The translations under genes were made by a program, and so were the position numbers. Shown here piece by piece: positions 23,579 through 24,439 of a stretch of 64,000 nucleotides of DNA. Where the stretch lies: the NCBI GenBank assembly GCA_963837265.1, contig CAWIMQ010000003.1:14694-78693 (forward strand), written 5' to 3'. Numbering within the stretch: position 1 is the first letter of the stretch; the number at the start of each line of letters is the position of its first letter. The notes below the pieces were generated by a model. It made no database searches. It worked only from the letters and a program-made list of their open reading frames with translations, and was not told where the DNA came from. The stretch is from an uncultured Actinomycetes bacterium. Its GTDB lineage: Bacteria > Actinomycetota > Thermoleophilia > Gaiellales > Gaiellaceae.

Positions 23579-24439
23579 GGGGGGGGGGGGCCGGGGCAGG
23601 CCCGCGCTCGACGCCGGAATTCGCCCACCGGCGGGGGGGGGGGGGGGGGGGGGGGGGGGGGGGGGGGGGGGGGGGGGGGGGGGGGGCCGCGGGAGGGGGG
23701 GGCGGCGGGGGGCGCGGGGCGGGGCGGTCGCGCGGGCGCGCGACGTGGCGGGCGGTGGGCGGCGCGCCGGGCGACGACGTGCGCCGGCGCGCCGGCGCCG
23801 CCGGGACGCGGCGGCCGCCGCCGTGTAGCCGCCGCGCGCCGTGGCGCCGCGGCCCGTGACCTGTGCCGCCCGTGATCGTCCAACCCCGCCAGTGAGCGCG
23901 TACGCCCGGTAGCGGCGCAGGGGCCGGGCCGCCGCCGGCCGGCCCCGCTGCACGCGTGGCCCGATCCCGAGTAGCCCGACCAGGCCGCGCGCGGGCGGGC
24001 GCCGCGCGCGCGAGCGCCGGGCGGGAACCCGCCCTCGAGGGCGCCGACGGCCGCGCGACGGGAGGCGGCCGGCCGCCAGGGGAGCCCGCGGAGCCCGAGG
24101 AACGACGCGCCGCAGGCGCCGCGTTCGCCACCGCGGCACCCGAGCCGCGCACCGGCCGGGCCGGGCCAGGGAGGCCGACCGGCGCGCACCGACCGGAGCG
24201 GAACCGCCCCGGCCGCGGCCGGACGCGCGCGCGACAGCGCCGAGCACACCCGGCCCCCGCACCGCGAGCGGACGGGCCGGCGAGCCGCGCACGCGCGCGA
24301 GGCGAGGCGGCCGCCGCGGGACGGAGGCGAACCACCGCGGAGCGCCGGGGGGCGACGCGCGCGGGACGACGCAGCGGAGCAGCGAGCAGCGGGAGGGAGG
24401 GGGGGGGGGGAGAAGGGGGGGGAGGGGGGGGGGGGGGGG
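23579..24439 (+). repeat. G-homopolymer / ultra-GC non-coding block
   Basis: G runs lie at 23579-23590 (12), 23633-23686 (54), 23695-23702 (8), 24399-24410 (12), 24415-24422 (8) and 24424-24439 (16). All are on the + strand. The sequence between them is extremely GC-rich and has no coherent coding frame. The first run starts the base after the SDR stop codon. Confidence 0.9.

Follow-up and report, generated by a model that had tools for sequence, protein, structure and literature searches.

What lies between the short-chain dehydrogenase (SDR) gene and the first gene of an NRPS operon in this genome? At this place the record holds a block of 0.86 kb with very high GC content, bracketed by long runs of G, which could be a regulatory element of the operon or an error of the record. 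The window, i.e. the whole stretch of 64,000 nucleotides that was analyzed, corresponds to positions 14694-78693 of contig C3 in a MAG (G000) of 4.0 Mb, which comprises 11 contigs of up to 940 kb, has 71% GC and is 93% complete. The parts of the locus are listed in Table 1. As detailed in the following, the block is a data error, not a biological switch, and does not represent a real feature.

Table 1. Features in and around the block, in window coordinates.
Feature	Position	Strand	Remarks
PPTase gene	21930-22694	-	
SDR gene	22763-23578	+	real and complete; Pfam adh_short, E 5e-53
G12	23579-23590	+	starts at the first base after the SDR stop codon (TGA, 23576-23578); spurious expansion of one G, contig_85721 reads TGA-G-CCGGGCAG...
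42-nt island	23591-23632	-	real sequence; probably 3' end of the convergent ATPase gene
G54	23633-23686	+	starts 42 nt past G12; followed by G8, G6, G4 and G4 blocks to about 23725
G54 and G8/G6/G4 zone	23633-23740	.	near-total collapse, almost only G left
ATPase body, collapsed	23741-24375	-	AAA_14/DUF4143 gene; real sequence with base-selective deletions
T-free stretch	24126-24459	+	334 nt; overlaps the ATPase body and the G12/G8/G16 zone
G12/G8/G16 zone	24376-24439	.	second collapse, only G and A left; ATPase 5' end and upstream region
Second cluster of G runs	G12 24399-24410, G8 24415-24422, G16 24424-24439	+	
Promoter/operator module and NRPS leader	24440-24627	+	real; palindrome CACCTGACCAGTTGGCCAGGTGG at 24456-24478
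First NRPS gene (C-A-T-C...)	24628-29730	+	Pfam Condensation, E 2e-99, and AMP-binding; frame broken further downstream

Composition of the block

The runs G12 and G54 and the second cluster of G12, G8 and G16 are present in the record exactly where an earlier note on this DNA had placed them, and all of them are G on the plus strand, as that note had also stated. The last run, G16, is separated from the palindrome of the promoter module by 16 nt. In the whole genome of 4.0 Mb, the counts of G and C runs drop about 5-fold with each additional base and end at 8 nt. Only five homopolymers of at least 9 nt exist, four of which are located in the block and the fifth, a run of 39 C, on contig C7; the G runs of the block are far beyond chance. 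The GC content is 0.84-0.93 over 23500-24400, compared to about 0.71 for the genome, and the block has the highest GC content (0.839) among 569 segments modelled as non-coding (median 0.681, 95th percentile 0.745). Its interior is not G-rich, with a GC skew of about 0. The block also contributes most of the longest T-free stretch in the genome, the runner-up of which measures 151 nt.

All six frames are open across the 0.86 kb of the block. Codon periodicity is absent in any frame, with a GC content of 0.88/0.87/0.83 in the three phases versus 0.74/0.51/0.93 in the neighboring genes, and we dropped the idea that the T-free sequence encodes a disordered protein, since periodicity is lacking in every frame. 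A search of the block against Rfam yielded no match, a scan for promoters and terminators found no promoter-like or terminator-like site in it, and the search for a second copy elsewhere in the genome returned compositional noise only. Tests with reduced alphabets (T treated as C, G or A) and a search with T-deleted k-mers against the same genome were likewise negative; the underlying idea of a deletion of T is correct, but the intact source gene is absent from this MAG.

The boundary to the SDR gene

The C-terminus of the SDR protein (...DAGFTVR*) and the stop codon are in the same place as in 18 orthologues, which have DNA of ordinary composition 3' of the gene, and a run of at least 8 nt occurs downstream of the SDR gene in none of 19 orthologous or paralogous loci. 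Orthologues from JGI metagenomes (≤77% identity) are followed by normal DNA, usually with a convergent condensation-domain gene, and are not close enough to be informative about the block. A search of 40 species representatives from the genus and order yielded no SDR orthologue at an E-value of 1e-40 or better. The MAG itself contains an SDR paralogue (68% identity, G000:C6:94627-95439, L002) inside a second, intact NRPS cluster; the next gene contains a condensation domain and is convergent with it, as is the case for most metagenome orthologues.

At 90% identity, the SDR protein clusters with one further member, encoded on contig_85721 of the ENA assembly ERZ25039533 (L180). This contig is 97.7% identical to the window at the nucleotide level over 21120-23579 and terminates 39 nt past the SDR stop codon, at most 2 nt from the start of G54. 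Its tail reads TGA-G-CCGGGCAGCCTGTGCTCGACGCCGGAATTCGCCCACCG and thus has a single G in place of G12. The sequence at 23591-23632, described earlier as the 42 nt that separate two runs, does separate them, but is real sequence common with contig_85721: it matches the last 38 nt of this contig (..GCTCGACGCCGGAATTCGCCCACCG) save for two T-to-C changes and two extra G. A GAATTC site in this island had been considered as a linker, which we discarded since the island is genomic sequence shared with contig_85721. Translated by eye on the minus strand, the tail of contig_85721 reads G-G-R-I-P-A-S-S-T-G-C-P, compared to GERIMAAPLACLSG* in a second sister contig, contig_48813, which suggests that it is the 3' end of an ATPase gene. 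Elsewhere on contig_85721 (L180 7384-8508), a repeat of 1.1 kb is located between a glycosyltransferase and a response regulator gene; copies of this repeat with 87% identity occur in our MAG, two on C1 and one on C4.

A collapsed ATPase gene between the G runs

Through the cluster of a neighboring response regulator, we reached two more contigs of ERZ25039533, contig_48813 (L182) and contig_55501. The former is 88.5% identical to the window over 15222-23579, agrees with it in gene order as far as the SDR stop codon and then continues for 1.4 kb to the contig end. These 1.4 kb are of normal composition and contain an ATPase gene (Pfam DUF4143, E 9.5e-20; P-loop GPRAVGKTT), which lies on the minus strand in window orientation and is convergent with the SDR gene. 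Their reverse complement is colinear with the block interior, 23741-24375. A blastn comparison of the block with the genome and 180 loci, at default settings, gave L182 as the sole significant non-self match, with an E-value of 2.4e-45, the next best having an E-value of 8e-07.

The alignment over 23741-24375 contains 206 deletions in the window versus 5 insertions, with 94% identity over aligned columns, and since contig_48813 comes from a related strain (flank 88.5% identical) and not from the same genome, some of these differences are real divergence. The losses are strongly base-selective: the window has kept 259 of the 295 G of the sister (88%), 247 of 295 C (84%), 66 of 120 A (55%) and 20 of 126 T (16%), with a Fisher p of 5.6e-39 for the excess of T deletions. 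Over 24126-24375, 39 of 43 T in the sister are deleted, the other four are substituted and none is kept. A stricter scoring for global alignment gave no alignment; the alignment made by BLAST itself served as an independent check and showed the same order of loss.

The two edges are the most heavily damaged parts, a pattern not predicted by a simple left-justified pile-up of insertions. At the left edge, about 390 nt of the sister correspond to 162 nt of the window (23579-23740), with 50 of 62 A, 82 of 119 C and 50 of 60 T deleted and 96 G matched, the alignment of this low-complexity sequence being approximate. At the right edge (24376-24439), 25 of 34 C and 20 of 25 T are deleted, no T is kept, and 37 of 42 G are. 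Here contig_48813 has ordinary, more AT-rich sequence, including the start of the ATPase (MATETTYHPR). The start codon is about 96 nt away from the palindrome of the promoter module, and contig_48813 ends at about this palindrome, i.e. at the right edge of the block. The former description of the block as ultra-GC, non-coding DNA holds for the GC content, but “non-coding” is misleading, as the real DNA is most likely a minus-strand ATPase gene of 1.3-1.4 kb. A paralogue of the DUF4143 ATPase, with about 74% nucleotide identity, is found at G000:C1:511239-511694.

Variation of the locus and quality of the contig

In contig_55501 (L181 950-5325), the PPTase gene directly adjoins a small GerE gene and an A-T-TE unit, without the SDR gene and the first NRPS operon; the locus is therefore structurally polymorphic. 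The three co-assembled variants share parts of the locus and differ in their flanks, with one of them ending at the left edge of the block and another at the right edge. In the assembly graph, the locus forms a junction. The caution voiced in the earlier note, that the link of the NRPS genes to the PPTase/SDR genes depends on this block, was well placed given this structural variability among co-assembled strains, and because their arrangements differ, the architecture of PPTase-SDR, ATPase and NRPS is provisional. On the NRPS side, a second copy of the palindrome is located at 38051-38072. The region upstream of the NRPS gene was uninformative in L010 and L014, where the match was to an internal module and not to the gene start.

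We ran a frame-tracking hidden Markov model over the whole genome to obtain candidate frameshifts. C3 has 29 of these per 100 kb, versus 1.7-8.3 on the other ten contigs. The candidates are clustered in a few hot spots, one of which adjoins the C39 run on C7, and rpoB and rpoC are single open frames. The six NRPS modules on C6 are each in one frame, whereas those on C3 are spread over several frames, with a break every 0.5-1.5 kb; in the window, this concerns the modules after the first, at 27900-64000 (C3 42555-78007). Considering the frameshift density of C3 and the intact modules of C6, consensus errors are a more likely explanation for the seemingly decaying genes of the cluster than pseudogenes.

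The C39 run (G000:C7:135284-135322, L179 2785-2823), the only other long homopolymer of the genome, lies between a minus-strand gene (5' part) and an IS1634-like transposase gene with several frameshifts (left end). It probably represents consensus junk like that of the block, at a site that is polymorphic for an insertion. Three contigs, C3, C9 and C11, have lengths of 99,950, 59,957 and 349,958 nt, i.e. 42-50 nt short of multiples of 10 kb, which suggests that contigs were cut or processed in units of 10 kb at some stage.

Similar runs in related MAGs

G or C runs of at least 25 nt are present in 31 of 201 sampled MAGs of the family (15%). Many are found at contig ends, in either orientation (C136 and C58 at starts, G37, C50 and C35 at ends), and often beside base-depleted junk, such as 300 nt of G-free, C-rich sequence (L089), 500 nt of C-poor, G-rich sequence (L091) and patches consisting of G and C only. 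The loci with these runs (L087-L098) come from G018, G064, G066, G138, G143, G149, G170, G188, G189, G210 and G231. The search for runs of at least 25 nt gave 843 overlapping matches in the MAG G076, and a T14G73 run lies between divergent genes in L097. The random orientation of the runs in relatives argues against the tails of two-colour reads and against a telomere-like feature.

A comparison of rpoB places the lineage near Gaiellaceae and the “MFD” soil MAGs, the latter being its closest relatives. For the MFD MAGs, no reads other than Nanopore were used, and the software was metaFlye with a single round of Medaka (PMC12313526). The sister contigs carry Flye-style names.

Origin of the block

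Independent assemblies of close relatives have ordinary sequence at this site, namely the ATPase gene in contig_48813 and one G in contig_85721, and an error process can derive the block from real sequence, as seen from the 206 versus 5 indels and the retention of 16% of T versus 88% of G. Since no mutational process known to us has this effect and the sequence is normal in a closely related strain, we consider the block an artefact of the consensus. We are confident that it is the corrupted consensus of a real ATPase segment, most likely caused by a failure of long-read consensus or polishing at a strain-variable locus. The colinearity with the gene, the base-selective loss, the breaks of the sister contigs at both edges, the variation of the locus and the poor consensus of C3 were observed directly; for the sequencing platform and the responsible software step, we infer Nanopore and a neural polisher from the contiguity of this soil MAG (11 contigs), its relatives and the pattern of errors.

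The true segment between the SDR gene and the NRPS module would consist of the minus-strand AAA_14/DUF4143 ATPase gene, convergent with the SDR gene and divergent from the NRPS genes, and its upstream region. Several co-occurring strains may have this segment in common within differing flanks, and because they share the segment and not the flanks, the reads would pile up inconsistently on it. The cause would then be a failure of the consensus step, long-read and probably Nanopore-only, or of neural polishing, which may have dropped T most, then A, then C and then G, so that 0.86 kb remained of about 1.4 kb. In the middle of the block, only T and part of A would have been lost, leaving a T-free strand with 85% GC. 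At the edges, all bases but G (left) or G and A (right) would have been lost and some G added, resulting in the runs G12, G54, G12, G8 and G16. More than one error mode must have acted, since G12 is an insertion of G and not a loss of other bases. We are not aware of any documented reason for a polisher to lose T before the other bases.

The first reading in the earlier note, a sequencing or assembly artefact, agrees with this outcome as far as the artefact is concerned, but not in the sources it named, G from absent signal in two-colour chemistry or gap filling, as the interior is colinear with a gene and a base-depleted version of it. In two-colour instruments, G carries no label and over-calling of poly-G is documented (PMC8002175), so that poly-G tails could have been built into the contig or a scaffold gap filled with such reads; that the runs of the block are all G on one strand, and that G/C runs are common at contig ends in related MAGs, would fit. 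Dark cycles, however, do not yield an interior with a GC skew of about 0 and a colinear gene copy in which first T and then A is deleted. Moreover, the right-hand runs are located 5' of good sequence, where read tails would give C, the runs of the relatives are either G or C at either contig end, and short reads alone are an unlikely basis for a 4-Mb MAG from soil with 11 contigs of up to 940 kb. An artefact of this type would leave nothing but G at 3' read or contig ends and no real sequence beneath it, whereas the block is internal to its contig; we regard a two-colour origin as highly unlikely.

There is a slim chance that the base loss was not purely a fault of software but had a counterpart in the DNA, a modified thymidine or a G-rich structure at the junction of the SDR and ATPase genes, with sequencing failing at the same nucleotide in two strains. 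The specific proposal that a modified thymidine or a motor-stalling structure made the base-callers miss T in every read has a negligible probability. It would account for a loss that is specific to base and strand (T on the plus strand) and for assemblies of two different strains that break at the same nucleotide, but the T content of the gene is normal in contig_48813, which was obtained from data of the same kind, A and C were lost as well and G was added, and a graph junction between strains is the simpler explanation for the breaks.

Exceedingly unlikely, too, is genuine DNA, i.e. an island of hypermutable homopolymers and G-quadruplexes that insulates or phase-varies the NRPS promoter, even though all G runs occupy the strand that is non-template for both flanking genes and adjoin a recurring promoter/operator module. 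This second reading of the earlier note is contradicted by contig_85721, which has one G for G12 despite 97.7% identity in the flanking genes, and by the orthologous loci, none of which has a G run, including those downstream of the 18 orthologous SDR genes. Natural G/C runs in this genome end at 8 nt, the sequence between the runs is a base-depleted gene copy, and the block has neither an Rfam match nor a promoter-like or terminator-like site. A tract of varying length at the same site in relatives, as expected of a contingency locus, was not found. At least four G tracts able to fold into a G-quadruplex are trivially present in the letters, which is meaningless if the letters are unreal, and the orthologous loci and sister contigs provided neither conservation nor another sign that the motif exists in the organism.

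Real decay, in which an ATPase pseudogene lost about 500 nt by many small natural deletions and to which the many frame-broken genes of the cluster could also be attributed, is practically out of the question, since we know of no mutational process that deletes T at 75% of sites, with none left over 250 nt, and keeps 88% of G, since the 206 deletions versus 5 insertions coincide with 94% identity of the retained bases to a strain with an 88.5% identical flank, and since a collapse to pure G at both edges is not a pattern of decay.

With a corrupted consensus as the origin of the block, the NRPS operon is preceded by neither a poly-G switch nor a G-quadruplex insulator, and biologically the block does not matter. 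What the public record lacks is a real gene, the AAA/DUF4143 ATPase, which is divergent from the NRPS operon and has a control region in common with it. In its place stand 0.86 kb with six open frames, which invite spurious protein calls. The ordered dropout, of T most and then of A, C and G, together with homopolymers at the edges, is a recognizable signature that could permit the automatic flagging of such blocks in collections of long-read MAGs.

Comparison with known systems

Phase-variable poly-G/C contingency tracts are known from Neisseria, Campylobacter and Helicobacter, where they are about 7-20 nt long and occupy a conserved site, with a length that varies among relatives. The block resembles these in having a G homopolymer that adjoins a promoter. 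In contrast to them, its run comprises 54 nt, and the nearest relative has one G at the site of G12 and the others none.

With the poly-G tails of two-colour Illumina reads (PMC8002175), the block shares long runs of G that are not in the DNA. Such tails, however, are pure G at the 3' ends of reads and hence at contig ends, and have no colinear T-depleted gene between clusters of G.

Homopolymers made by polishing, without support by the reads, were described together with an insert of aberrant composition by Courtine et al. (2020, GigaScience; PMC7500977), who used four rounds of Racon followed by Medaka. As in our case, a stretch of aberrant composition with long homopolymers replaces real, complex sequence of larger or similar size, at a site where reads and draft disagree structurally and which is flanked by good sequence. 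Their case differs from ours in that the homopolymers were of A or T, the genome was fungal and the lack of support was proven by read pile-ups, whereas our block is dominated by G, is part of an actinobacterial MAG with 71% GC, has an interior in register with a gene, and shows an ordered dropout of T > A > C > G.
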